Source: a virus (taxonomy: Duplodnaviria; Heunggongvirae; Uroviricota; Caudoviricetes). From it: a DNA stretch of 12,149 nt. The position numbers and the translations under genes are program-made. Positions 1 to 12,149 of this stretch are shown one piece after another; position 1 is the first letter of the stretch; every line of letters begins with the position of its first letter. The notes under the pieces are model-generated. The model worked only from the letters and a program-made list of their open reading frames with translations, was not told the origin of the DNA and searched no databases. Location: positions 1 to 12,149 of the IMG/VR virus record IMGVR_UViG_2737471817_000011, one strand, 5' to 3'.

Positions 1-1284
1 TTACTTCTTCGCCTCTGCAACCACTTTACTACCCACGCCGCGGTTATTGTATTCCCACATGCGGTTGTAGTTAGTGTCATTCAGATTGCGCTGTATTTCG
101 TCGTTATCATCTACGCTGCCGGTATTACCCGCAAACGGACGATTAGAGATCACCGCATCGGCCCACGGTTTAGCCGTGTTAAAACCTTCGTTGATGGCGC
201 TATCACGGATCACCACCTGACCGTTGGTATTGGCATCAACATCCAGCGAGCGGCCCAGTTGCGCCACACCATCACCGAAAGCATTGAAACGGCTGTTTAC
301 GGCGAGGAAACCGTAGTAAATGTTGGACAGCGTAGCCGGTGCAAACACATACGCTTCTTGCTGAGTACGTGAGTTCACCACGCGGAATTCGGTGTTATCG
401 AACACCACTGCGCCGCGACCAGAAACGATATCCACATCCCCTTCAATGTAGCTGTTGGTCACCAGCGTACGCGGCTGACGGTTGGTTTCCAGACGGTTCT
501 GCACACCGCTGTTGGTGACAAAGAAGGTGTTCTGACGACCGAGAATGTTAACGTTGTTAATCTGTACCAGGTCACCATCAGTACGCAGTGCCACCGCCGG
601 ATGGTTACCTGCATCTACGCTATCGCCCAGCGTGTTTTCGATGGTCAGATTTTGCAGTTGCAGGCCATTGTTTTGTGACCAGAAGACCGCAGAGCAGAGA
701 ACACCGATACTGTCGCTGCGTTTGCTCTGGCAGCTATCGTACATATACCACGCTGGTTTACCTGGCATATATTTGCCGCGCGGGTTGACGTCGTGACGCC
801 AGTCGGCAGGGCTCATGCCACCATCAAGGGAAAGCCCAATCTTCACATCAATCGGTTTTTCACCTGTACCGTACAGAGTAATTCCACCCGGAGCGGCAGG
901 GACATATACCGTTCCCTGATACTCACCAGGCATCACGGCAATATACTGGCGCTTGTTGGTACGCTTGATAATTGCCGCATCTACCGCCGCCTGAATCGTG
1001 GTATGCGTTACACCTTGAGTGCCCGCCGGGCCGACAACAAAGTCAGGTTGCGCAGGCAGGGTAATCGGGGAAGGATTCCACGCTGCAGCACCTGGTGTCA
1101 GGGATGCAAAATAGTGTTGAGCATCGAAATTCTGCGCTTCTTTTGCCGACAGAATCGGGCGAGAAGAGGTACCAGGCGCGGTTTGATCAGAAGGACGTTG
1201 ATCGGGCGGGGTTGAGCTACAGGCGGTCAGCGTCACGCCAAAAGCCAATGCCAGCGCCAGACGGGAAACTGAAAATGTGTTCAC
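1..1284 (-). CDS. ybhC: Outer-membrane lipoprotein YbhC (pectinesterase-fold family; putative acyl-CoA thioesterase)
   Basis: 427-aa ORF ending at window base 1. N-terminus MNTFSVSRLALALAFGVTLTAC has a signal peptide and lipobox (LTAC). Recognised from memory as the gene flanking attB-lambda on the gal side in E. coli K-12. Confidence 0.88.
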   Translation of the reverse strand: MNTFSVSRLALALAFGVTLTACSSTPPDQRPSDQTAPGTSSRPILSAKEAQNFDAQHYFASLTPGAAAWNPSPITLPAQPDFVVGPAGTQGVTHTTIQAAVDAAIIKRTNKRQYIAVMPGEYQGTVYVPAAPGGITLYGTGEKPIDVKIGLSLDGGMSPADWRHDVNPRGKYMPGKPAWYMYDSCQSKRSDSIGVLCSAVFWSQNNGLQLQNLTIENTLGDSVDAGNHPAVALRTDGDLVQINNVNILGRQNTFFVTNSGVQNRLETNRQPRTLVTNSYIEGDVDIVSGRGAVVFDNTEFRVVNSRTQQEAYVFAPATLSNIYYGFLAVNSRFNAFGDGVAQLGRSLDVDANTNGQVVIRDSAINEGFNTAKPWADAVISNRPFAGNTGSVDDNDEIQRNLNDTNYNRMWEYNNRGVGSKVVAEAKK

Positions 1285-1330
1285 AGGTTGCTCCGGGCTA
1301 TGAAATAGAAAAATGAATCCGTTGAAGCCT

Positions 1331-1345
1331 GCTTTTTTATACTAA
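1331..1345. other. attL: attL core: 15-bp lambda-type overlap sequence GCTTTTTTATACTAA
   Basis: Exact 15-mer read at 1331-1345. Left flank (ccgttgaagcct) is bacterial B-arm-like; right flank (gttggcattataaaaaagcattgcttatcaatttgttgcaacgaacaggtcactatcagtcaaaat) matches the lambda P' arm as I recall it. Confidence 0.9.
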
Positions 1346-1426
1346 GTTGGCATTATAAAAAAGCATTGCTTATCAATTTGTTGCAACGAACAGGTCACTA
1401 TCAGTCAAAATAAAATCATTATTTGA
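1346..1426. promoter_or_regulatory. P' arm of attL with tandem Int arm-type sites (aggtcactat / cagtcaaaat, 1392-1411)
   Basis: Arm-type consensus-like decamers read directly at 1392-1401 and 1402-1411, followed by AT-rich aaaatcattatttg. The 3' end of int overlaps this arm, as in lambda. Confidence 0.7.
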
Positions 1427-2489
1427 TTTCAATTTTGTCCCACTCCCTGCCTCTGTCATCACGATACTGTGATGCCATGGTGTCCGACTTATGCCCGAGA
1501 AGATGTTGAGCAAACTTATCGCTTATCTGCTTCTCATAGAGTCTTGCAGACAAACTGCGCAACTCGTGAAAGGTAGGCGGATCCCCTTCGAAGGAAAGAC
1601 CTGATGCTTTTCGTGCGCGCATAAAATACCTTGATACTGTGCCGGATGAAAGCGGTTCACGACGAGTAGATGCAATTATGGTTTCTCCGCCAAGAATCTC
1701 TTTGCATTTATCAAGTGTTTCCTTCATTGATATCCCGAGAGCATCAACATGCAATGTTGTAGGTATGGCAATTTTTACGCCCGTTTTGCTTTGCTCGACA
1801 TAAAGATATCCATCTACGATATCAGACCACTTCATTTCGCATAAATCACCAACTCGTTGCCCGGTAACAACAGCCAGTTCCATTGCAAGTCTGAGCCAAC
1901 ATGGTGATGATTCTGCTGCTTGATAAATTTTCAGGTATTCGTCAGCTGTAAGTCTTGATCTCCTTACCTCTGATTTTGCTGCGCGAGTGGCAGCGACCGG
2001 GTTTGTTGTTATATGGCCTTCAGCTATAGCCTCTCGGAATGCATCGCTCAGTGTTGATCTGATTAACTTGGCTGATGCCGCCTTGCCCTCGTCAATGTAT
2101 CCATTGAGCATTGCCGCAATTTCTTTTGTGGTGATGTCTTCAAGTGGAGCATCAGGCAGACCCCTCCTTATTGCTTTAATTTTGCTCATGTAATTTATGA
2201 GTGTCTTCTGCTTGATTCCTCTGCTGGCGAGTATTTTTTCGTAGCGATCAAGCCATGAATGTAACGTAACAGAATTATCACTGTTGATTCTTGCTGTCAG
2301 AGGCTTGTGTTTGTGTCCTGAGAATAACTCAATGTTTGCCTGTATTGCTTCAGTAATTGCTATCCTCCTGTCTCTGCCTAATCCGAACTCTTTACCCGTC
2401 CTTGGGTCCCTGTAGCAGTAATATCCATTGTTTCTTAAATAAAGGTTAGGGGGTAAATCCCGGCGCTCATGACTTCGCCTTCTTCCCAT
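1419..2489 (-). CDS. int: Lambda-type tyrosine integrase Int
   Basis: 356-aa ORF starting MGRRRSHERRDLPPNLY and ending EWDKIEIK, near-identical to lambda Int as I recall it. Catalytic region contains HELRSL and GHKSDTMASQY (tyrosine recombinase R/H/Y signature). Sits next to the att core. Confidence 0.96.
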   Translation of the reverse strand: MGRRRSHERRDLPPNLYLRNNGYYCYRDPRTGKEFGLGRDRRIAITEAIQANIELFSGHKHKPLTARINSDNSVTLHSWLDRYEKILASRGIKQKTLINYMSKIKAIRRGLPDAPLEDITTKEIAAMLNGYIDEGKAASAKLIRSTLSDAFREAIAEGHITTNPVAATRAAKSEVRRSRLTADEYLKIYQAAESSPCWLRLAMELAVVTGQRVGDLCEMKWSDIVDGYLYVEQSKTGVKIAIPTTLHVDALGISMKETLDKCKEILGGETIIASTRREPLSSGTVSRYFMRARKASGLSFEGDPPTFHELRSLSARLYEKQISDKFAQHLLGHKSDTMASQYRDDRGREWDKIEIK

Positions 2490-2685
2490 TTCTGATCCTC
2501 TTCAAAAGGCTACCTGTTACTGGTCGATTTAAGTCAACCTTTACCGCTGATTCGTGGAACAGATACTCTCTTCCATCCTTAACCGGAGGAGGGAATATCC
2601 TGCATTCGCGCACCCATCGACGAACTGTTTCAAGGCTTCTTGGGCGTCGCTGGCGAGCGTTCCACTCCTGAAGTGTCAAGTACAT
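2467..2685 (-). CDS. xis: Excisionase Xis (lambda-type)
   Basis: 72-aa ORF MYLTLQEWNARQRRPRSLETVRRWVRECRIFPPPVKDGREYLFHESAVKVDL, matching lambda Xis from memory. Its 3' end overlaps the int start by 23 bp, as in lambda. Confidence 0.94.
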   Translation of the reverse strand: MYLTLQEWNARQRRPRSLETVRRWVRECRIFPPPVKDGREYLFHESAVKVDLNRPVTGSLLKRIRNGKKAKS

Positions 2686-2710
2686 CGCAAAGTCTCCGCA
2701 ATTACACGCA

Positions 2711-2736
2711 AGAAAAAACCGCCATCAGGCGGTTTG
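2711..2736 (-). terminator. Candidate intrinsic terminator between the 55-aa ORF and xis (GC stem ccgcc/ggcgg followed by a U-run on the minus-strand transcript)
   Basis: Stem aaaccgcc (2716-2723) / ggcggttt (2728-2735) with loop atca; minus-strand RNA continues with a U-tract (plus-strand A-run 2713-2718). The stop codon of the 55-aa ORF (2725-2727) sits in the loop. Confidence 0.5.
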
Positions 2737-2892
2737 GTGTTCTTTCAGTTCTTCAACTCGAATATTGGTTACGTCTGCATGCGCTATCTGCGCCCATATC
2801 ATCCAGTGGTCATAGCAGTCGTTGATGTCCTCTGCTTCGATAACTCTGTTGAATGGCTCTCCATTCCATTCACCTGTGACTCGGAAGTGCAT
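2725..2892 (-). CDS. Small hypothetical protein (55 aa), positional equivalent of the 55-aa ORF just upstream of xis in lambda
   Basis: Not in the supplied ORF track (below its length cutoff); read by hand from the minus strand: MHFRVTGEWNGEPFNRVIEAEDINDCYDHWMIWAQIAHADVTNIRVEELKEHQTA. GGAGA Shine-Dalgarno 6 nt upstream of the ATG. Same spacing from xis as lambda's 55-aa ORF, by my memory of lambda coordinates. Confidence 0.5.
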   Translation of the reverse strand: MHFRVTGEWNGEPFNRVIEAEDINDCYDHWMIWAQIAHADVTNIRVEELKEHQTA

Positions 2893-2972
2893 TTATCATC
2901 TCCATAAAACAAAACTCGCCGTAGCGAGTTCAGATAAAAGAAATCCATCAATTGGTTAGGGTATTTGTAATT

Positions 2973-3158
2973 CTACGAATTATGTTGTTTTTTAGCTTCA
3001 GCTTTCCATTCATCAAAGGCAGTGTCTTTGTTCATGGTGCTGATATTGATCTTACGGTCAATATCATATACACGCCACTCACCGTTAGGCCTCTCTTCGC
3101 ATCTAACTAAGTATGAATTGCCATTAATATCTATGCGTCTGTCTATTTGCATGAACAT
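2973..3158 (-). CDS. Hypothetical small protein (61 aa from the first ATG; track ORF uses a TTG two codons upstream at 3164)
   Basis: ORF MFMQIDRRIDINGNSYLVRCEERPNGEWRVYDIDRKINISTMNKDTAFDEWKAEAKKQHNS. I recognise no family. It is flanked by AT-rich gaps on both sides, unlike the overlapping genes upstream. Confidence 0.35.
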   Translation of the reverse strand: MFMQIDRRIDINGNSYLVRCEERPNGEWRVYDIDRKINISTMNKDTAFDEWKAEAKKQHNS

Positions 3159-3275
3159 TTTCAATTTTCGAATCCTCTTTAATATGCATTTTTTGCTATT
3201 TCAGTAGTTTACTATTGATGAGGCGTTATTATACACACTTCATTAATGCAAGCATCTTTATGCTATGCTACTAAT

Positions 3276-3557
3276 TTAGCCATCAATATTCACCTTTATC
3301 GCGTACACCTTTACCGGTTTATCGCCGAAGTGCGGATGTGTGATTGTCTTGATTTCATAGCCGCCATACGGAACGTCAATTCTGCGGCTGGAATCGTCGC
3401 GCTTCGGATATCCCTTTGTGATAATCAGGCTGTCATACTCCCGTAACATAATTCGCTTATTCCAATAGTCATTACACAGGCGATACTCTTCCGTTTTCTC
3501 TCCTCGAATCATGGCATCGAAGTATTCACCTTTGACGGCAAGTTGTAGGTTAGCCAC
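3276..3557 (-). CDS. 93-aa phage accessory protein; N-terminal motif resembles PUA-like ASCH/DUF3850 beta-barrel proteins; positional analogue of lambda ea8.5
   Basis: ORF MANLQLAVKGEYFDAMIRGEKTEEYRLCNDYWNKR... The pattern hydrophobic-x-(E/P)YF-x-A-x-x-x-G-x-KT-x-E-x-R is typical of ASCH/DUF3850 N-termini. Its start overlaps the stop of the upstream Lar-like gene by 8 bp (operon). Confidence 0.5.
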   Translation of the reverse strand: MANLQLAVKGEYFDAMIRGEKTEEYRLCNDYWNKRIMLREYDSLIITKGYPKRDDSSRRIDVPYGGYEIKTITHPHFGDKPVKVYAIKVNIDG

Positions 3558-3852
3558 GGTTAACCTCCTGCGGAGTAGCCTTTACAAGCACTGGTGCAAA
3601 TCCATCTTCATTAAGGTTATGAATATAGACTTCTGTTCTCCTGCGCTCTTCAACGTTTAATATTGTTTCTGGATCATAAACCCATACTTTCATTCGACTA
3701 TTCCATGAAGAAATCGCTTCAGATCTAGTTCGTTTTTCTGGTCCTTGGGCACCACATTTGCATGACACATAGCGCATTTTCCCTCTGATACTGAATGAGT
3801 ATCCGATGTTAAGCACAGTGGAACCACAGAATGGGCAGCGATATAGATTCAT
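3550..3852 (-). CDS. Lar-family zinc-ribbon protein (putative restriction-alleviation / modification-enhancement protein)
   Basis: 100-aa ORF MNLYRCPFCGSTVLNIGYSFSIRGKMRYVSCKCGAQGPEK with a CPFCG...C-x-CG four-cysteine zinc ribbon near the N-terminus, as in Lar (RalR-like) proteins. AGGTGGA Shine-Dalgarno upstream. ATGA start/stop overlap with the upstream 254-aa gene. Confidence 0.6.
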   Translation of the reverse strand: MNLYRCPFCGSTVLNIGYSFSIRGKMRYVSCKCGAQGPEKRTRSEAISSWNSRMKVWVYDPETILNVEERRRTEVYIHNLNEDGFAPVLVKATPQEVNRG

Positions 3853-4610
3853 AAATCATCCACCTTAGGCGCAGCTGAGACAGCAACATTCCAGAACTCA
3901 GAAAACATATTGTATGCACCAGATAGATTGGAAGTGGCATACCCTCCAAGCTCACTTCTAATCTGAACGGCTCTCATCATTTCCGGCGTTAACTCCTTCG
4001 GCACCATAACCCAACCATCCGGAGTTACCGGAGAGTTGCCATTTATATCGAAGTTTGGCTCTGCGTCCTGAACCAGGAGGATGTAACCATTCTTGGCAGT
4101 ATCAAGTTCTAACGCCTCGGTGACGGTGCCGAAATAGCGATTGCCTAAATCAGCATCACAAGTGCTTACATCAATGGAAACTTCCATGCCTTCGATTAAT
4201 TCTGGCAAGTTGTAAGTTTGGCTTACATGTTGGCTACCCTGAAGCATGGCGGCGCGGCAGGCGTTCCAGCCTCTCACCTCTGCAATAGCGGCAACAGCAT
4301 CAACCGCGTACATTTTAAGAGGGTTAGGCATTGGTTTTTCTTCAGGTACTACTGGCACTGGAGGGGCGGCATAAACAGGAATAACGTCCGATTGCTCTTT
4401 ATTGCTTTCATCCGTTAAAGCCCAGAATAATTTTCCAGCCGGATGTTTGAAAATATAAGCAACTGGTTCTGCTTCCAGCGATGCCAGCGCCAACTTGAAC
4501 GCCTGAAGCTCAATGGCACTGTTGGTATCCAGTCCAAACGGTAATTCATCACGATTGGCTTCGTATTCAGCGATAGTTTGCTTCAGCCATTCTTTGGTTA
4601 GTTCAGCCAT
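3849..4610 (-). CDS. Hypothetical 253-aa phage early-left accessory protein (positional analogue of lambda ea22; family not recognised)
   Basis: Track ORF 3849-4661; I place the start at the internal ATG 4608-4610 (MAELTKEWLKQTIAEYEANRDELPFG...), which is preceded by AAGGGG. Acidic, proline-rich linker (PVYAAPPVPVVPEEKPMPNP) between two predicted domains. Translationally coupled to the Lar-like gene. Confidence 0.6.
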   Translation of the reverse strand: MAELTKEWLKQTIAEYEANRDELPFGLDTNSAIELQAFKLALASLEAEPVAYIFKHPAGKLFWALTDESNKEQSDVIPVYAAPPVPVVPEEKPMPNPLKMYAVDAVAAIAEVRGWNACRAAMLQGSQHVSQTYNLPELIEGMEVSIDVSTCDADLGNRYFGTVTEALELDTAKNGYILLVQDAEPNFDINGNSPVTPDGWVMVPKELTPEMMRAVQIRSELGGYATSNLSGAYNMFSEFWNVAVSAAPKVDDL

Positions 4611-4614
4611 ATCC

Positions 4615-4824
4615 CTAATTCCCCTTGGTGCTGACTTTGACGCCAACCTTGCGAATCTCATCGGCGCATCTGTTCACGATACTCCGGTGAAACTCACAAA
4701 AAATTTTCGCCGACTGCGGCCCTAATGGGTGAACATCGTGCGCACGCGGCAGTACAACCTCCCGCGCCTCCATGTCAGCAATCCGCTTGTCTTTGGCTTC
4801 CAGCTCATTCAGCAGCGCCAGCAA
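4615..4824 (-). CDS. Questionable small ORF at the deletion junction (TTG start in track; possible 5'-truncated remnant of an early-left gene)
   Basis: Translation LLNELEAKDKRIADMEAREVVLPRAHDVHPLGPQSAKIFCEFHRSIVNRCADEIRKVGVKVSTKGN. No ATG with a Shine-Dalgarno at its 5' end; an in-frame stop lies only 8 codons upstream. It ends 4 bp before the 254-aa gene start. Confidence 0.25.
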   Translation of the reverse strand: MLALLNELEAKDKRIADMEAREVVLPRAHDVHPLGPQSAKIFCEFHRSIVNRCADEIRKVGVKVSTKGN

Positions 4825-5747
4825 TTCAGCAGATTGATACTGAGATATCTAATCTGCAGAAGCTTGGTAAGGTGGCTGATAACGAGACTATTTCAAAACT
4901 TCAGTCATATCGTGATGAGCTTGTTCGCAATGCTGGTCCTGATGGTCCGGTCAATCTGGATTTGAAGCAATTAAGCGATCTGCGCAGCCAGTTCAGAATG
5001 GACGTGAAGGGTGAGCGACCAGTGTTACCAAACCGTTCCGATGCTGCCATTCAGCGAGTTTACAAGGCGATGACCGACGATATCAATGGTGCCATTGGTC
5101 AGAATCTTGGCAATGATACTCTTCGTAAATATCAGCAGGCCAATGCCGTCTACGCTGACGAAGCGGCGAAACTAAAGAATACCAGGCTGAAGAATGTTCT
5201 CATGAAAGGCGACCTGACTCCGGAAGTTGTCAACAACATGCTATTCAGCAAGAACAAATCGGAAATTAAGACTCTGTATAACTCAGTTGGTCGTGTTGGC
5301 AGGGCGCAAATGCGCAATGGCATCATTGGAAAGGCGATGGAGAAATCAGGTGGTTCCCCTGACCAGTTCCTTCGGCAGCTTAATATCCTGCAAAACCATA
5401 CTGGCATCACATTTAAGGGGCAGGACTCTGCTTATCTGAAAGGATTAAAAAACTACCTGCAATCCACGCAGCAGGCTGCAAAAGCGGCAGTAACAACACC
5501 CACAGGGCAGCAAACTATCCCGTTCATTATTGGGTATGGGACGGCAATGAACCCGGCGACAACTGGCGCAGCAGTAAGCTATGGACTTCTTACGCGCGTC
5601 TATGAGAGCGAGCCATTCAGAAATGCAATGCTCCGAATGGCAAACACCCCGCGCGGATCAACAGCGTTTGAGAAAGCCATGCAGCAGGCACAAAAGGCAA
5701 TTAACGCTATGACGCAGGGGGCTAAGTCTGATGCGTTGTCAGAATAG
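4725..5747 (+). pseudogene. Probable 3' fragment of a P22-like internal virion / DNA-ejection protein gene (gp16-like by position); the first ~35 codons of the track ORF are probably not coding
   Basis: Long + strand ORF ending 90 bp before a convergent mnt-like gene, the position gene 16 occupies relative to mnt in P22. The C-terminal region is Ala/Gln-rich (QQAAKAAVTTPTGQQ...MQQAQKAINAMTQGAK). The N-terminal 4725-4830 is GC-rich, low-complexity and overlaps a minus-strand ORF. Confidence 0.4.
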
Positions 5748-5836
5748 CTTTTCAAACACCAGGAAAGTACAAAAACCAAATATGTAGAATGCAATATTCA
5801 TCATATCTCTTTGCATAAATCCTCCGTAATGGATGG

Positions 5837-6097
5837 TTAGTTGCTGTCTTTTTTATATAGCTCCTTGAGCGTATCAAAGACAATTTTCTTAACCATATCA
5901 GATTGTTGTTCTGCCATACGCTCTGCATCGTCAATGTAAACTGATGCAGAGCTTTGTTTATCCAATGATTCTTCAATCGCTGCAATTATCTCTGAGTTCA
6001 GCGACCTGTTATTCATCTTCGCACGCTGCTTAATTTTCGCGTGGAGTTCATGCGGAAGTCTCAAGTGAAACTGCGCCTCGTCGTATTTGCTGTACAT
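5837..6097 (-). CDS. mnt: Mnt-like ribbon-helix-helix repressor (immI-type)
   Basis: From the internal ATG at 6095-6097 (AAGGA Shine-Dalgarno upstream): MYSKYDEAQFHLRLPHELHAKIKQRAKMNNRSLNSEIIAAIEESL...DAERMAEQQSDMVKKIVFDTLKELYKKDSN. Closely parallels P22 Mnt as I recall it (FNFRMPMEV...GRSMNSELLQIVQDAL...DAERLADEQSELVKKMVFDTLKDLYKK). Confidence 0.8.
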   Translation of the reverse strand: MYSKYDEAQFHLRLPHELHAKIKQRAKMNNRSLNSEIIAAIEESLDKQSSASVYIDDAERMAEQQSDMVKKIVFDTLKELYKKDSN

Positions 6098-6170
6098 CCT
6101 TGATGCCTCACCAGTTGGGTGGAATGGCATCGTAACCTACTGGATAAATACTCAACAGTACCATTTCGGT

Positions 6171-6193
6171 ATGCAATCACATCATGATTGCAT
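6171..6193. promoter_or_regulatory. Perfect 9-bp inverted repeat with 5-bp spacer (ATGCAATCA-catca-TGATTGCAT); candidate operator upstream of mnt
   Basis: Read directly at 6171-6193. Lies in the 131-bp gap between the mnt start (6097) and the HNH gene stop (6229), where an immI-type operator/promoter would be expected. Confidence 0.45.
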
Positions 6194-6228
6194 CATATCA
6201 TTCGTCTGGAGCAATGAAATGTCAGATA

Positions 6229-6729
6229 TCACCTACTCAACAGATGGTCAGCAACCATGTTTGCTGCCTTATAAGCTATAGCAGCTTCATCAATGGTGTT
6301 GAATCTCCCAAGGGTTATGTTTTTACCTGAGACATTTATCTGAGCTTGCCATTGATTTCTGGCTTGACAGAAAGTTACCCCCTTGATCCCAGCATTGCTA
6401 TTTCGAGGTCCGACATTTAATGCATTTACGACTCTGCTGACATCCCTAAGGTTTGAGATTGCGTTATTTCTTCTGTTTCTATCAATGTGGTCAATCTCTT
6501 GTTTGGGCCATTCGCCATATACATACAGCCAGGCAAGTCTATGTGCAAAATATCTTACGCCATCAATATTAATTGCGTTATATCCATAAGAAATTGTGCC
6601 AGCAACTTTCCCAACAGCACCTCTGGCGCTTAATTTCTTTTTCCAAGTGAAAATTCCTGTTTCTTTATTGTAATCGAGAACCTCCATAAGGCGCTCCCGA
6701 GTTACTACCTCGTGACGTCTCTTACTCAT
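6229..6729 (-). CDS. HNH endonuclease with C-terminal AP2-type DNA-binding domain (homing-endonuclease-like)
   Basis: From the ATG at 6727-6729 (GGAG Shine-Dalgarno upstream): [14 protein letters not shown]... HNH_3-type motif [36 protein letters not shown], then AP2-like [43 protein letters not shown]. Confidence 0.8.
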
Positions 6730-6751
6730 TATTTTCTCCGGAATGTTTATT

Positions 6752-8644
6752 ATGCCAGAACAATTATACAACGTTGTTGTTTCACAACCAAGTCAGTTAT
6801 TTACTTTAGCTCGCTCGTTTAAAGCAAATGCCAATGGCAAAATTTATATCGGAAAAATTGACACTGACCCTGTAAATCCTGAAAACCAGATTCAGGTTTA
6901 TGTGGAAAACGAAGACGGCTCTCACGTTCCTGTATCGCAACCAATCATCATTAACGCTGCTGGTTACCCGGTATATAACGGACAGATTTCCAAGTTCGTA
7001 ACCGCGCAAGGCTATTCTATGGCTGTGTACGATGCATACGGCTCTCAGGAGTATTACTTCTCGAGAGTTAAAAATGACACGCGGTCAGTCACATCATTCC
7101 TGAGTAGCAGGGAATTATGGAAGAAGTACTTGAAGGAATTTGGAATCGTTCTAGTTGATGGTAGCTTTGAGGAAGGGGCAACAGTTAGCGCACCAAATCA
7201 GGCTGTATGGTATAAGTTTGATGGAAAGTGCTATGCAAGAGTAACCGGAGATAGCGTTATCGTTGCATCTGGCTCATCGCCAGACTCAGGCTGGACATCT
7301 GACATTGGCTCACGCATTAAAGCGTGGCTCCCTAATACATCACCAAATACAGATGTATCTACGCGTTTGCAGGCATTGCTTACAGTCGGGAAAGGTGAGA
7401 TTAAAATCCCTGACGGGCGCTATACGGTAAACACCGTCCTTATTACTAACTTTAGCGATTCATCATTCCCATCACTGGGGGCTGGCAGTCCACGTTATAA
7501 TTTTAGCGGTTCATCGATTAACAATACTATTTTCACGGTTTCTGATAATTACTTGCTGAATCACACTGGTGGGGTGAGCGGAACTGTAGTTCATGGAACA
7601 AACACTTATATGAGAACCGGTGATTGTCAGATAATTGGAACTGGAGCAACAAGTAGCGGTGGTTTCAAGTTTAGTTTTTGCACATTTATTGAAGTCGAAA
7701 ATATACGTGCAGCATTGCTTGGAATTCCAGTGTATTTTGCAAACTGCATATATAACTATGTGCGAAACATCAGAGTTGATAATTCTCTGTACGGCATATT
7801 TACAGAAAGTTCAGATCCATCATTCCCAACAAATTCAACATTTGTTGATGATTCAACATTTACTTACTGCTCAAGATATGCTGTAGAGGCGACCATTGGT
7901 CTCACCTTTAACATGACCAATTGCAGTATTGAGAAAAATGGTGTACAAGGTGATGTAAATACTGGTGGGATTTATTTAAAGGTTACTGAGCCGTTAAGTG
8001 TTATAAATATCACTGGAACGTATTTTGAAGCAAACAAAGGAAATGCTGACATAACTGTCCTTAACTCTGGCGGCGGCACCATAGTCGTAAATTTAATAGG
8101 TTGCACGTTTAACAGAGGTAACTCAGATGGGGGTTATACATTAACAAACTTCAAATCACTGTCTCATGCAGGGGTTGGTAAGATTATACTAAATCTACAA
8201 GGGTGTCATTTCTTCTCAAATACATCGTGGGGATTTACTCCATCGGCTGATAAACCTTTTATTACACCTGACACATGGCTTACTGTTAATGGTCTGGATA
8301 CATGTACATTCAGTGAAACAACAAGTCTACCAGACACTATTCAATCAAGCTCATCCAGTATTAGCGTCAAGGTTGCTGCGGATGGTACAAAAATCAGCGG
8401 CCCATCCTACATCACAACGTCAAAAACAGGAACTGGAGTTTATTCAGTAACAAGTAATTATCCATTAGGTACATCGCCTGTTGGCAATGATTATTCCGTA
8501 ATGGCTATATCCAACATCGATGGTTTTGTTGTTACAAGCTCGGCAAATCAAAGTGCAACTTCCTTTAATGTAAGAACTAAAAGTTCTTCCGGTTCCGCTG
8601 CAGACACAGCCTTTAGTGTGACAATTACAAGACGAATTGGGTGA
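6752..8644 (+). CDS. Tailspike protein: P22-type N-terminal head-binding domain plus a distinct beta-helix-like receptor-binding domain
   Basis: Residues ~10-105 ([72 protein letters not shown]...AVYDAYGSQ) parallel the P22 gp9 head-binding domain as I recall it. The rest is Ser/Thr/Asn/Gly-rich with repeated N-x-(S/T) and Cys-containing short repeats, typical of right-handed beta-helix depolymerases. Alternative start at 6743. Confidence 0.85.
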
Positions 8645-8649
8645 TTAAG

Positions 8650-8679
8650 GATGGCGCATATGCGCCATCTTTTTATTTA
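8650..8679. terminator. Bidirectional intrinsic terminator between convergent tailspike and gtrC genes
   Basis: Perfect 20-bp palindrome GATGGCGCATATGCGCCATC (8650-8669) followed on the + strand by TTTTTATTTA. The gtrC stop codon (8673-8675) lies in the T-run. Confidence 0.65.
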
Positions 8680-9947
8680 TTGATTACGCAATCATAAAAG
8701 GCTGATACCTGACCTAAATTACCAAAAAACCAATACTCTCTGTTGTTAATATATCTATATGTATATGGCGTTGAGATTCTATTAACTTTAATTCCATTTT
8801 TACACGACCCATTAAACCTTGCAGATTCAATTGTTGATTCTCTTAATGAATCTTGTGCTGAATATGCAACAGCTGCCTTAAGAGCAAGTAATGATGATGG
8901 AACCGACAGTAACACGATGGATAGCAAAATTATTATTGATGCCTTGCTTTGTTGTGATATCACCAAAATAGTGGAGCGAGTTATAACTGCTGTCATTATG
9001 CACCATGAGAACATGAATGCCCTTGCTTCTGTGTATGGTGACATAATCATTGAACCATCAACAAGAACAGCGGCAATAATACAGAGCCATATTTTTACAC
9101 TCGCTTTATTGGTATAAATTAAATATCCAATTGAAATAACGGATATAAACATTAAAAACCATGATGTAGTTACGAAAACAGTGATAACATCAATAATTCT
9201 TGCCGTGATGTAATCAATGCTCATTCCATTGTAATTTAAAGCATGTTGATAAAATTCCTTTCTCCGTACTGTTGATGGAGCTAGAACAATGATAATCCAT
9301 CCTGCCAACACAAAAATCATAGGAATAATGCGCTTTATTGATAGATTATCATTAATAAAACAAAATAATAACATCGTTATAAGTAAAGCAACTGGTACAT
9401 TTTCAAAACTAAGTCCAGCCAAGAGACATGCAAATAAATACACGCAATAATATTTTATTTTTATTTTTTCAATTAAATTGTAATTTATATACACAAGCAA
9501 TACCGATAGCGTTATTACCATCGGTTGCAGGTATCCAGCATTTGCTGTTTTCCAGAAAAAAACCTCAAATCCAGGCCAGAACGAATATATTGCAATAATT
9601 GAAACGCATGTCCCAAACATAGCGTTATTGCTATCATCTGAGAAAATCCTGAAAATAATATAAGATAGGGCCAAAAAAGAAATAATTGATACGACTATAA
9701 AAAATGTTGGCGGCATGCTCAAGTTAAATATTGCAAGTTGCTCACCAAGCCTTGCGTTCCACATTTCAATTTGTCTTGCTGATCTTTCAACTGAATACAT
9801 GATTCTTGTAATCAAGTCGTGATTAATGAATCTTTTGGTTAATGCAAAATCCTCACCAGCCAATGGGAATATTGAGAATGTTATTGCATAAACAGATGTA
9901 AGAAAGCCTGCAACTATGTAGATGCAGCGATTTATGTTATTTACCAC
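8673..9947 (-). CDS. gtrC: GtrC-type serotype-specific O-antigen glucosyltransferase (polytopic membrane protein)
   Basis: 424-aa, strongly hydrophobic ORF with many predicted transmembrane segments, immediately downstream of gtrA-gtrB and overlapping the gtrB stop by 11 bp. GTG start 5 nt after AGGAGG. Very AT-rich (only 11 G/C in 9421-9480). Confidence 0.75.
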
Positions 9948-10863
9948 ATTCCCCTCCTTTCAGAATATAGCGCGGACGATGCTTAACTTCTGTATAAATT
10001 CTGCCAATATATTCACCAAGAACGCCGATTCCAATCAATTGAATGCCACCGAGGAATAGTATTGATACAAGAAGTGACGGATACCCAGGAACGTTGTTGC
10101 CAAACATCAGCTTGTCAATAATCATCCACGAGCCATACATAAATGACAGGCTGGCGACAAAAAGGCCAATGTATGTCCACATTCTCAGTGGTAAGGTAGA
10201 GAAGCTGGTGATTCCTTCGAGTGCCAGATTCCATAACTTCCACCCGTTGAATTTAGAATCACCTGCGACGCGTTCTGCCCTGGCATACTCAACAACATCT
10301 GTGCGTCCGCCAACCCAGCTCAGCACGCCCTTCATAAATAGGTTGCGTTCCGGCATGAGTTTTATGTTCTCCACGACCTCGCGGGACATCAGACGGAAGT
10401 CACCAACGTTTTCTTCAATCTTCGGATGACTAATTTTGTTGTGCAGTTTATAAAACCACTCAGCGGTTTTTCGCTTTAATCTTCCATCAGTAGATCGATC
10501 TGATCGTTTTGCAAGCACCATATCAGCACCTGCCTGCCACTTTTCAATAAGATGAGGAATAACCTCAATCGGGTCTTGCAGGTCAACATCAATTGGAATT
10601 ACAGCATCTCCGGTTGCATGGTCTAACCCTGCAAACAATGCTGGTTCTTTACCAAAGTTTCGTGTAAATGACAGCGGAACAACTAGAGGATCTGAAACGG
10701 ACAGAGCGTTAATGATTGACTCCGTAGCGTCTTTGCTACCATCATTTATAAAAACAATTTCCACTTCATATGGCTTCAACTCTTCGAATTCACGTACCGT
10801 TTTATAAAAAATTGGTATCGCTTCCTCTTCATTGAAGACAGGAACGACCAGAGATATCTTCAT
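9937..10863 (-). CDS. gtrB: GtrB bactoprenol (undecaprenyl-phosphate) glucosyltransferase, GT2 family
   Basis: 308-aa [53 protein letters not shown]... (GT2 N-terminal fold, DxD-type region PIDVDLQDP) with two C-terminal transmembrane helices, the classic GtrB/YfdH architecture. 4-bp ATGA overlap with gtrA. Confidence 0.92.
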
Positions 10864-11222
10864 TTCGCATCCCTAAAGACAATGAACTTTGAATAGACGA
10901 AACCGCACACCAAGCTGATGGCGGAGAAGGTGACAAGAGTGACAATTGGAGGAAGTGCACATCTATCAGCAGCCCATCCAACAGTAGCACTCAGTGTTCC
11001 CATGAACCCGACATATAACATGTAACGCATCGTTGTAGTTGATGCTTTGAATGTGAATTTTGCATTCGCGAAGAAGCTAAAACTCACAGCCACAACAAAA
11101 CCTGCGAAGTTTGCAAGAGCCTGATTTGTATGCGCGGCATAGATACATACACCAAAAACCACCCAGTGTATAAGTGTGTTCAGCACACCAATCGAGGTGT
11201 ACTTTGCAAATAGCTTTAACAT
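10860..11222 (-). CDS. gtrA: GtrA flippase-family small membrane protein
   Basis: 120-aa [62 protein letters not shown]... with four predicted transmembrane helices. Recognised from memory as GtrA (YfdG-like). First gene of the gtr operon, as in P22 and Shigella serotype-converting phages. Confidence 0.92.
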
Positions 11223-11386
11223 TTATTTAATCAATGAGTTCATGAAAGGCATGAAGTCTATCATCCAAGTCTCAATCGATCGATACTTGCTATGGTTGAT
11301 GAGACAAAACTGAGACACACAAAGCTTTGCACTGAATTGCAAGGCTTTGTTCTTCTCTGGAGTGCGACAAGTTTGATGACAAAAAA

Positions 11387-11421
11387 TTAGCGCAAGAGGA
11401 CAAAAAATCACCTTGCGCTAA
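11387..11421. promoter_or_regulatory. sib-like stem-loop (candidate RNase III retroregulation site) on the phage side of the P arm
   Basis: Stem TTAGCGCAAG (11387-11396) / CTTGCGCTAA (11412-11421) around a 15-nt loop. It sits where lambda sib sits relative to attP, on the far side of the P arm from int. Confidence 0.45.
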
Positions 11422-11567
11422 TGCTCTGTTACAGGTCACTAATACTATCTAAGTAGTTGATTCATAGTGACTGCATATGTTGCGTTTTGCAGTATTATAC
11501 AGTCTATTTTTTAAGCCAAATGTATTGTAAGTGATTGCTATTAATGATTTTTGCTGTTTCTGGTTCA
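11422..11567. promoter_or_regulatory. P arm of attR with Int arm-type sites (acaggtcactaat at 11431-11443; catagtgactgcatat at 11460-11475)
   Basis: The distal P arm (ctctgttacaggtcactaatactatctaagtagttgattcatagtgactgcatatgtt) matches lambda from memory. The core-proximal ~60 bp (aagccaaatgtattgtaagtgattgctattaatgatttttgctgtttctggttcagc) appears to differ from lambda. Confidence 0.65.
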
Positions 11568-11582
11568 GCTTTTTTATACTAA
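11568..11582. other. attR: attR core: second copy of the 15-bp core GCTTTTTTATACTAA, followed by bacterial B' arm (cttgagcg)
   Basis: Exact 15-mer at 11568-11582, a direct repeat of 1331-1345. Downstream cttgagcgaaacggg matches the attB right arm as I recall it. Confidence 0.9.
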
Positions 11583-11641
11583 CTTGAGCGAAACGGGAAG
11601 GTAAAAAGACAAAAAGTTGTTTTTAATACCTTTAAGTGATA

Positions 11642-11664
11642 CCAGATGGCATTGCGCCATCTGG
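11642..11664 (-). terminator. Stem-loop immediately downstream of ybhB (possible terminator or mRNA-stabilising hairpin)
   Basis: CCAGATGGC (11642-11650) / GCCATCTGG (11656-11664) with loop ATTGC, 9 bp after the ybhB stop. No clear U-run follows on the minus-strand transcript, so terminator function is uncertain. Confidence 0.3.
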
Positions 11665-11672
11665 CAGAGTGA

Positions 11673-12149
11673 TTAACTAAACATCGCAGTAATCGAGGCG
11701 CTTGCCAGAGAGTGGAAATGAACGTTAAACCCGACCATCGCGCCGCTGGCACCTTCATCGACATCAATACGTTCTATATCCAGCGCGTGAACGGTAAAAA
11801 TGTAGCGATGAGTTTCGCCTTTCGGCGGTGCTGCGCCATCGTACCCGGTTTTACCAAAGTCGGTACGCGTCTGCAAAACGCCGTCTGGCATTGCTACCAG
11901 ACCAGAGCCAAACCCTTGCGGTAATACGCGGGTATCAGCGGGTAAGTTAACAACTACCCAGTGCCACCAGCCGGAGCCGGTTGGCGCATCCGGGTCATAG
12001 CAGGTGACGACAAAACTTTTCGTTCCCGCAGGAACATCATCCCACGCCAGATGCGGTGAAATATTATCGCCATCGTAACCCATGCCGTTAAAGACATGAC
12101 GATGCGGCAACTTATCGCCATCGCGCAGATCATTACTGATGAGTTTCAT
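11673..12149 (-). CDS. ybhB: YbhB, PEBP (phosphatidylethanolamine-binding protein / RKIP) family protein
   Basis: 158-aa ORF MKLISNDLRDGDKLPHRHVFNGMGYDGDNISPHLAWDDVPAGTKSFVVTCYDPDAPTGSGWWHW..., PEBP signature DPDAP...GxxHW. Start codon is the last 3 bases of the window. Known neighbour of attB-lambda on the bio side. Confidence 0.88.
   Translation of the reverse strand: MKLISNDLRDGDKLPHRHVFNGMGYDGDNISPHLAWDDVPAGTKSFVVTCYDPDAPTGSGWWHWVVVNLPADTRVLPQGFGSGLVAMPDGVLQTRTDFGKTGYDGAAPPKGETHRYIFTVHALDIERIDVDEGASGAMVGFNVHFHSLASASITAMFS

Follow-up and report, generated by a model that had tools for sequence, protein, structure and literature searches.

The stretch of DNA analysed here, hereafter the window, comprises positions 1–12,149 of the viral record IMGVR_UViG_2737471817_000011 and holds at 8673–11222, on the minus strand, three overlapping and intact open reading frames (ORFs) in the order gtrA-gtrB-gtrC, exactly where a first-pass annotation made from the sequence alone had placed an O-antigen glucosylation operon. 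We consider it likely, with a probability of roughly 0.8, that these genes form an intact operon for lysogenic (serotype) conversion, borne by a defective P22-like prophage and working by the mechanism set out below. It is, in short, a textbook system with a rare and uncharacterised specificity gene. Its three members are:

gtrA, 10860–11222, minus strand: 120 aa, small protein with four transmembrane (TM) segments, PF04138 (GtrA_DPMS_TM), proposed flippase of undecaprenyl-phosphate (UndP)-glucose
gtrB, 9937–10863, minus strand: 308 aa, GT2 bactoprenol (undecaprenyl-phosphate) glucosyltransferase, PF00535
gtrC, 8673–9947, minus strand: 424 aa, polytopic protein of predicted GT-C fold, short PF19528 clade, presumed specificity determinant

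The gtrA and gtrB genes overlap by 4 nt (gtrA stop and gtrB start), gtrB and gtrC by 11 nt (gtrB stop and gtrC start), and the start codon of gtrC is a GTG placed nine bases past a GGAGG. The first two products are conserved, as had been claimed for them. GtrA matches PF04138 (E 3.4e-13) and is 90–91% identical to its counterparts in the Shigella phages SfI, SfII, SfIV, and SfV, 78% to that of P22, and 99% to that of an Escherichia coli prophage (locus L026). GtrB matches PF00535 (GT2, E 7.7e-31) and, with 98–100% of its length aligned, is 90–92% identical to its characterised counterparts in SfI, SfII, SfIV, SfV, and P22, a level of identity at which it is safe to infer that the window GtrB would make undecaprenyl-phosphate-glucose.

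For the third gene, an AlphaFold2 model built on an alignment of 50 window-GtrC relatives of ~420–460 aa (alignment A1) reached a pLDDT of 93.2 and a pTM of 0.92, with some 11 long helices plus a small domain at the C-terminus. The best Foldseek matches to this model are STT3, ArnT, AglB, PglB, and EmbB; by sequence profile, no relative with a solved structure was found in the PDB. Just past the helix formed by residues 2–26 there is an acidic pair, E32-D33, which is invariant in the 50 sequences and aligns with the equally invariant D30-D31 of the epsilon34 clade (see below). In GT-C enzymes the catalytic acidic residues are found just past the first transmembrane helix, a position that E32-D33 would occupy here. 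Enzymes of this fold such as STT3, ArnT, and PglB work on the extracytoplasmic side and are supplied with sugar by a polyprenyl (di)phosphate carrier, and the fold thus fits the role of GtrC, since the use of a polyprenyl-linked sugar outside the cytoplasm is the job assigned to it. The model makes the prediction that the third gene encodes a GT-C-fold membrane glycosyltransferase well supported, and glucose as the donor and GT-C as the enzyme class are likewise well supported.

That the third gene encodes no glycosyltransferase at all, being instead an O-antigen acetyltransferase, a polymerase- or ligase-like protein, or a transporter, we regard as very improbable. GtrC is a positional name and proteins that bear it are not all glucosyltransferases (Salmonella GtrC family II reportedly turned out, in a paper on the BTP1 GtrC, to be an O-antigen acetyltransferase), and PF19528 was long listed in Pfam as a domain of unknown function (DUF). 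However, neither an acyltransferase-3 domain nor any other Pfam domain was found in the window GtrC beyond PF19528, both fold searches place the GT-C enzymes well ahead of transporters and other folds, and the acidic pair directly past the first TM segment, where it would correspond to the GT-C catalytic loop, is invariant in both clades.

In the mechanism that we propose, GtrB, a GT2 enzyme at the cytoplasmic face, would transfer glucose from UDP-glucose to undecaprenyl phosphate, as its identity to known GtrB proteins suggests, and GtrA, judging by its family membership, would move the UndP-glucose to the periplasmic face. GtrC, probably by means of E32-D33 in its first periplasmic loop, would then pass the glucose from UndP-beta-Glc to one specific sugar of the growing O-antigen repeat, with acceptor, linkage, and activity all predicted. 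The added glucose is probably an alpha-linked side branch, because GtrB-type GT2 and GT-C enzymes are both inverting, and all characterised Gtr systems add, to our knowledge, an alpha-glucosyl branch. The tailspike encoded next to gtrC would bind and cleave the same O-antigen that GtrC modifies, and through this modification related phages would adsorb less and the serotype would change.

Family and relatives of GtrC

The window GtrC matches PF19528 (DUF6056) with 95.8 bits (cut-off 27), residues 9–399 covering positions 8–407 of the 442 in the model. The newer Pfam label of this family is GT_STM0557_N, after Salmonella STM0557, and gp20 of phage epsilon34 matches it with 227 bits (E 3.7e-67). 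PF14264 (Glucos_trans_II) had no match to the window GtrC at E <= 0.01, in contrast with GtrII (1.8e-30) and P22 GtrC (1.3e-33); Shigella GtrI and GtrIV gave weak GT-C-type matches only and GtrV none. Neither NCBIfam nor PHROGs returned a family for the window protein. Pairwise comparison by BLASTP and phmmer against GtrI, GtrII, GtrIV, GtrV, P22 GtrC, and epsilon34 gp20 found nothing significant, and for this reason acceptor and linkage are not transferable by homology.

The relationship to the epsilon34 protein is seen at the profile level. Alignment A1, compared by hhalign with an alignment of 41 epsilon34 gp20 relatives (A2; ~546 aa, including Salmonella), gave a probability of 99.1% (E 1.1e-18) over 395 columns, at 15% identity. 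The aligned blocks, with A1 given first, are:

PLxGEDF with PMxSDDY
a 19-letter block of A1 with NPNLGQTSFWIVGSANYLW
GLSFENVP with GCSNENTS
APSTxxRR with SPGNxxRA
SPYTEPRAF with SPxxPPRS

The alignment stops at about position 423 of the 559-column profile of the epsilon34 clade, and the window clade is without the ~125-aa C-terminal region of the epsilon34/STM0557 clade. From these profiles the window GtrC appears to be a genuine, very distant member of the STM0557/epsilon34 family, belonging to a separate short subfamily; the link to STM0557 itself is drawn from how Pfam names the family, from the epsilon34 paper, and from the comparison of profiles. A scan of genome contigs with the motifs of the short clade returned no Salmonella locus. 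All 34 invariant columns of the 50-sequence alignment are kept in the window GtrC, and the dN/dS of gtrC against its relatives is 0.13–0.19.

In a collection of 15 billion sequences the closest protein (P0001) is one residue off (I154M) and comes from one Logan sample only. Further full-length relatives are 79% and 76% identical (both on single Logan contigs) or 70% identical (an E. coli "DUF6056 family protein"), a partial protein of Enterobacter sichuanensis is 89% identical, and all the remaining ones reach at most 47%. HMMER over 1.84 billion cluster representatives retrieved 135 relatives at E <= 1e-3, 54 of them at E <= 1e-30. By tblastn the protein had no match in 50,697 phage records, and blastn in near and distant modes recovered no match to the gene from 5,426 complete E. 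coli genomes. A literature search returned no paper that connects DUF6056 with Gtr systems. The insignificant pairwise results and the lack of a tblastn match in those phage records lead us to reject near-identity to a characterised GtrC; that gtrC is a common E. coli allele is rejected on the E. coli search and on the occurrence of P0001 in one Logan sample only. The protein search of GtrC proposed in the first-pass annotation thus found no near-identical characterised transferase, and its description of the gene as probably novel is borne out, the full-length relatives at 70–79% being uncharacterised.

Linkage of gtrC with the tailspike receptor-binding domain

The operon converges with a tailspike gene, from which it is separated by a hairpin:

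tailspike, 6743–8644, plus strand: P22-type head-binding N-terminal domain and divergent receptor-binding domain, convergent with gtrC
hairpin, 8647–8672, no strand assigned: GC-rich palindrome between the convergent tailspike and gtrC

Residues 4–109 of the tailspike match PF09008 (E 3.4e-55), and this N-terminal head-binding domain is 75–88% identical to those of HK620, Sf6, CUS-3, and Kapi1. The earlier claim of a P22-like arrangement with a tailspike beside the operon is confirmed, P22 having the same order of a tailspike convergent with gtrC-gtrB-gtrA-att. The receptor-binding domain (residues 121–633) is itself rare, its best match in the 50,697 phage records being that of Sf101 at 37.5% identity.

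It is evident from the homologous loci that GtrC and the receptor-binding domain diverge together, and that GtrA, GtrB, and the N-terminal adaptor of the tailspike do not follow them. The identities to the window are:

L001: GtrC 100%, receptor-binding domain 100%
L030 (Enterobacter; a different adaptor, PF18668): GtrC 89%, receptor-binding domain 90%
L033: GtrC 76%, receptor-binding domain 56%
L026–L029: GtrC 70%, receptor-binding domain 66%
L031/L032: GtrC 47%, receptor-binding domain none
L034: GtrC 39%, receptor-binding domain none

The Enterobacter sichuanensis contig (L030) matches window positions 7112–9465 in one unbroken block of 2355 bp at 90.4% identity, running from about codon 123 of the tailspike through the terminator to the point inside gtrC where that contig ends, and the dS values of the two genes are the same (0.296 and 0.302). 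When the window is compared with the E. coli prophage L026, the divergent block lies at ~7570–10580 and takes in gtrC together with the receptor-binding part and two-thirds of gtrB (its 3' portion), flanked by gtrA and 5' gtrB with 96–100% identity on one side and by the N-terminal part of the tailspike with 97–99% on the other. Within this small sample of a handful of loci, the sequences indicate that gtrC and the receptor-binding part have been inherited as one block. P22-family tailspikes are O-antigen-specific, and inheritance as a block would be expected if tailspike and GtrC recognised the same O-antigen and were exchanged as one specificity cassette. The cassette reading fits two published observations: GtrABC-mediated O:12-2 glucosylation restricts the adsorption of phages (bioRxiv 10.1101/2023.11.08.566301), and recombination in gtrAB takes no account of gene boundaries (PMC3688519).

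The hairpin at 8647–8672 has an 11-bp stem with six G-C pairs; a T-run comes after it on the plus strand, and on its other side there is an A-run that T-rich sequence precedes. It is included in the block that the window and the Enterobacter locus have in common, a terminator is annotated at the same place in P22, and to judge by its sequence the hairpin is probably a bidirectional intrinsic terminator.

The same linkage bears on the acceptor. A periplasmic acceptor other than O-antigen (enterobacterial common antigen, LPS core, capsule, or protein) could be imagined, given that the GT-C fold is common to enzymes of lipid A, proteins, and cell-wall glycans (ArnT, PglB/STT3, PMT, Emb/Aft) and that homologues of the short clade are found in non-enterics (actinobacterial and acidobacterial metagenome-assembled genomes), often with no GtrAB within 6 kb. 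We judge this improbable, since at every Enterobacteriaceae locus examined the gene is found downstream of gtrAB and beside a tailspike or tail-fibre gene, GtrC divergence tracks that of the receptor-binding domain of a tailspike whose family is O-antigen-specific, and, among the described members of the family, STM0557-0559 acts on O-antigen and epsilon34 genes 20–22 are assigned to O-antigen conversion (PMC3688519, PMC2629481). The wider short clade is nevertheless not strictly tied to Gtr operons: of 17 distant homologous loci in other genera, nine have a GtrB homologue within 6 kb (among them loci of Enterobacter, Erwinia, Pseudescherichia, Stenotrophomonas, Pseudomonas, Modicisalibacter, and Polaromonas), and the other eight have neither GtrA nor GtrB within that distance. 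At one locus of Modicisalibacter coralii (L011) two paralogous short-clade PF19528 genes (6001–7245 and 10484–11743) lie ~3 kb apart with one gtrA-gtrB pair, which suggests one UndP-Glc supply serving two transferases.

Prophage setting, expression and base composition

The element sits in an E. coli-type chromosome between ybhC and ybhB, at the lambda attB site, and is delimited as follows:

ybhC, 1–1284: chromosomal gene at the left end of the window
attL core, 1331–1345: lambda att core GCTTTTTTATACTAA
gtrA upstream region, 11223–11350, minus strand: Shigella SfII/SfV type, with a conserved inverted repeat at 11319–11350
attR core, 11568–11582, plus strand: identical to the lambda att core GCTTTTTTATACTAA
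ybhB, 11673–12149: chromosomal gene at the right end of the window

The 15-bp lambda att core occurs in two exact copies in the window (0.04 expected), which bracket the ~10.2-kb element from int (1419–2489) through gtrA. The gene gtrA lies 345 nt from the attR core, and int and xis are at the opposite end of the prophage. The element holds a lambda-type integrase gene, xis, and a small number of early-left genes, one of them a Lar-like gene for restriction alleviation; it also holds a partial gp16-type gene, mnt (whose product matches Mnt/Arc domains in Pfam), an HNH-AP2 endonuclease gene, the tailspike, and then the convergent gtrC-gtrB-gtrA. The gp16-type ORF (4725–5747) corresponds to the C-terminal half only, profile positions 332–666 of 668 (PHROG 770, DNA transfer protein). 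No head, lysis, replication, or immunity genes were found among the ORFs of the ~10-kb prophage. With a head-binding-domain tailspike, the half gp16-type gene, and mnt, all in P22 order, the element is a P22-like prophage remnant with lambda-type integrase and att. The genes for recombination, immunity, replication, lysis, and the head were seemingly lost in one large internal deletion; the early genes (int, xis, and others) are now fused directly to the C-terminal half of the gp16-type gene. Comparable remnants, with other gtrC and tailspike alleles, are present at the ybhC/ybhB site in many complete E. coli genomes, and the Logan assembly SRR26665359 contains the same 12-kb locus at 99.975% identity, undisrupted and adjoining bioA-D and uvrB.

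Some further details of the remnant and its kin may be recorded. The Lar-like restriction-alleviation protein that it has kept is encoded at 3550–3852 on the minus strand (PHROG 599, E 3.8e-18). The HNH-AP2 (homing-type) endonuclease ORF, at 6229–6771 on the minus strand between mnt and the tailspike, is also present in L001, and its start as listed overlaps the start of the tailspike by 29 nt on the opposite strand. E. coli USMARC-49610 (L002) has at the same attB site a four-gene version, in which an extra ORF of 150 aa (8701–9153, no Pfam match) stands between gtrB and another PF19528 protein, of 413 aa. An Rfam search of the window gave no match.

Several of these results weigh against an active conversion operon. 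The prophage is a deletion remnant, which bears on expression and on selective maintenance in the host, and a consensus scan found no sigma-70 promoter upstream of gtrA; to these must be added the insignificant pairwise comparisons of GtrC, the C-terminal region that its clade is without, the eight distant loci with no GtrA or GtrB nearby, and the fact that none of its closest relatives, nor any member of the ~424-aa clade, is characterised. The operon could therefore be an intact-looking relic with no phenotype here, either silent or in a host whose O-antigen has no acceptor (a rough strain or a different O-type). In addition to the reduction of its carrier to ~10 kb, with gene 16 truncated, and to the promoter scan, such a relic would be compatible with a unique 1-nt insertion 28 nt upstream of the gtrA ATG, and some Salmonella Gtr families give no visible LPS shift even when constitutively expressed (PMC3688519). 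Against it, the three ORFs are intact with every family-invariant residue kept, the upstream region is otherwise near-identical to those of SfII and SfV, which convert serotype from their native regions, and an independent second sample has the same locus undisrupted. Moreover, the retention of int, tailspike, and gtrABC with the loss of ~30 kb is the pattern expected if selection keeps the gtr module, and similar remnants recur at this site. Overall we find a relic unlikely, and a functional conversion operon remains our preferred reading.

Regarding its control, the 130 bp 5' of gtrA align nearly base for base with those of SfII and SfV, and all three are without the ~87-bp block of P22 that holds four GATC sites and OxyR half-sites. 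Phase variation by Dam and OxyR has been associated with two pairs of GATC sites, four in all, that overlap three OxyR half-sites in the region upstream of gtrA (PMC2909390). The region 11223–11582 has one GATC only, at 11278, and P22-type Dam/OxyR phase variation is rejected on this single site and on the absence of the P22 block; from its sequence, gtrABC expression is probably not phase-variable by this mechanism. The whole window has 23 GATC sites, against ~46 expected from base composition. The single-base insertion mentioned above lies at ~11250 (TTTCATGAAC against TTTCA-GAAC) and is unique to the window among six aligned sequences (window, P22, SfV, SfII, epsilon34, and another E. coli locus); it creates an upstream ORF of six codons (MNSLIK*) whose stop abuts the gtrA ATG. 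The inverted repeat at 11319–11350, with a 13-bp stem (ACAAAGCTTTGCA...TGCAAGGCTTTGT), is kept in P22, SfII, SfV, and epsilon34; in our scan it is terminator-like on the plus strand, and its equivalent in epsilon34 is annotated as a possible int terminator. A 62-aa ORF at 11223–11411 was dismissed because it spans this conserved non-coding regulatory region, and an antisense ORF at 8743–9117 because it falls inside gtrC.

The base composition of gtrC is extreme within the window. The count of 11 G/C in the 60 bases at 9421–9480, given in the first-pass annotation, is exact; there are 34 positions at which a 60-mer has no more than 11 G/C in the 12,149 bp, all of them within gtrC (9312–9451), and the lowest value (6/60) is at 9432, also in gtrC. 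Its overall GC content is 33.1% (28.5% at third codon positions), and its product is rich in Ile (13.9%) and Phe (7.3%). The contrast with flanking genes of ~50% GC that had been drawn holds for the chromosomal genes outside the prophage (ybhC 53.4%, ybhB 52.4%) but not for the direct neighbours of gtrC, which lie at 41–44% (gtrB 43.6%, gtrA 43.8%, tailspike 40.8%). The further claim that AT-richness points to a recent horizontal origin did not survive. The genes gtrI, gtrII, gtrIV, gtrV, P22 gtrC, epsilon34 gtrC, and the gtrC encoding the 70%-identical relative all have 32–33% GC, the DUF6056-family gtrC of L002 has 36%, and every gtrC compared, from unrelated protein families and various hosts, adjoins a gtrB of 42–44% GC. 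With all of them at 32–36%, low GC as a sign of recent transfer is rejected; it is a standing property of the gtrC gene class and not a clock. A very recent arrival is also argued against by the carrier prophage, since this is a heavily deleted remnant.

Significance and comparison with known systems

We give somewhat less than even odds to a broader joint reading, which would be as follows. The window GtrC would be the first recognised short-clade PF19528 GtrC without the C-terminal domain, adding an alpha-glucose branch at an acceptor or linkage unassigned to any E. coli gtr gene, and gtrC, the receptor-binding domain, the terminator, and 3' gtrB would make up a ~3-kb exchangeable "recognise-and-mask" cassette that is passed among phages differing in their virion adaptors and also across genera (E. 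coli and Enterobacter). If this were true, Gtr specificity would be predictable from the tailspike, and vice versa. In E. coli, side-branch glucose is commonly added by prophage Gtr genes, and half of the O-units with a glucose branch have no matching transferase in their cluster, which has been attributed to prophage gtr (PMC7685785). Very few E. coli GtrC types are tied to an O-antigen structure, and the window locus offers a clean, intact, and rare allele to match. The linkage of gtrC with the receptor-binding domain would give a route to predict which O-antigen a given GtrC modifies and may indicate which phages are excluded, with a bearing on serotyping, vaccine antigens, and the host range of phage therapy. 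No concept is changed by this, and assigning the allele to a structure would be useful but unsurprising.

Among described systems, the epsilon34 gtrABC (genes 22-21-20) and STM0557-0559 have the same operon order as the window in a P22-like prophage setting, and in epsilon34 GtrC also converges with the tailspike. STM0557-0559 adds Glc alpha1-4 to the Gal of the S. Typhimurium O-antigen, giving O:12-2 (PMC3688519), and epsilon34 genes 20–22 are assigned to the 3,15 to 3,15,34 serotype conversion, with a GtrC reported as 30–40% identical to STM0557 (PMC2629481). The GtrB of this system is 88% identical to that of the window and its GtrC belongs to the same family PF19528, with the acidic pair after TM1 aligned, yet the GtrC identity is only ~15% at the profile level and the proteins measure 546–551 aa against 424 aa, the difference corresponding to the C-terminal region. 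The hosts differ, and presumably so do the acceptor O-units. The STM0557 operon (gtrLT2_I; GtrC family III) also has a four-GATC/OxyR region (PMC2909390), in contrast to the single GATC of the window.

The phages SfI, SfII, SfIV, and SfV share with the window highly similar GtrA (90–91%) and GtrB (91–92%) proteins, the int-att-gtrA-gtrB-gtrC layout, a gtrC likewise at 32–33% GC and, in SfII and SfV, the same type of gtrA upstream region. Their GtrC proteins are unrelated in sequence to that of the window (GtrII belongs to PF14264), and they have other tail genes beside gtrC and thrW-type int/att, whereas the window has a P22-type tailspike and lambda-type int/att. P22 (gtrABC for O:1; GtrC family I) has the identical order, with the tailspike and the terminator followed by the convergent gtrC-gtrB-gtrA-att-int, the same type of tailspike head-binding domain, and a GtrB 90% identical. 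Its GtrC of 486 aa belongs to PF14264 and not to PF19528, it has the Dam/OxyR phase-variation block that the window is without, and the integration sites differ.

The closest relatives, uncharacterised as well, are the P22-like E. coli prophages near fadL/mlaA/yfdC (P0004, L026–L029), with 70% identity in GtrC and 66% in the receptor-binding domain, and the Enterobacter sichuanensis prophage (P0005, L030), with 89% (partial) and 90%. Both have the same convergent tailspike/gtrC pair as the window. The E. coli prophages differ from it in integrase and att site and look largely complete, compared with the remnant of the window, and the Enterobacter tailspike carries the N-terminal adaptor PF18668, unlike the PF09008 of the window. 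The order in which int/att, gtrA, gtrB, and gtrC converge on a tailspike is common to P22, epsilon34, and the E. coli prophages.

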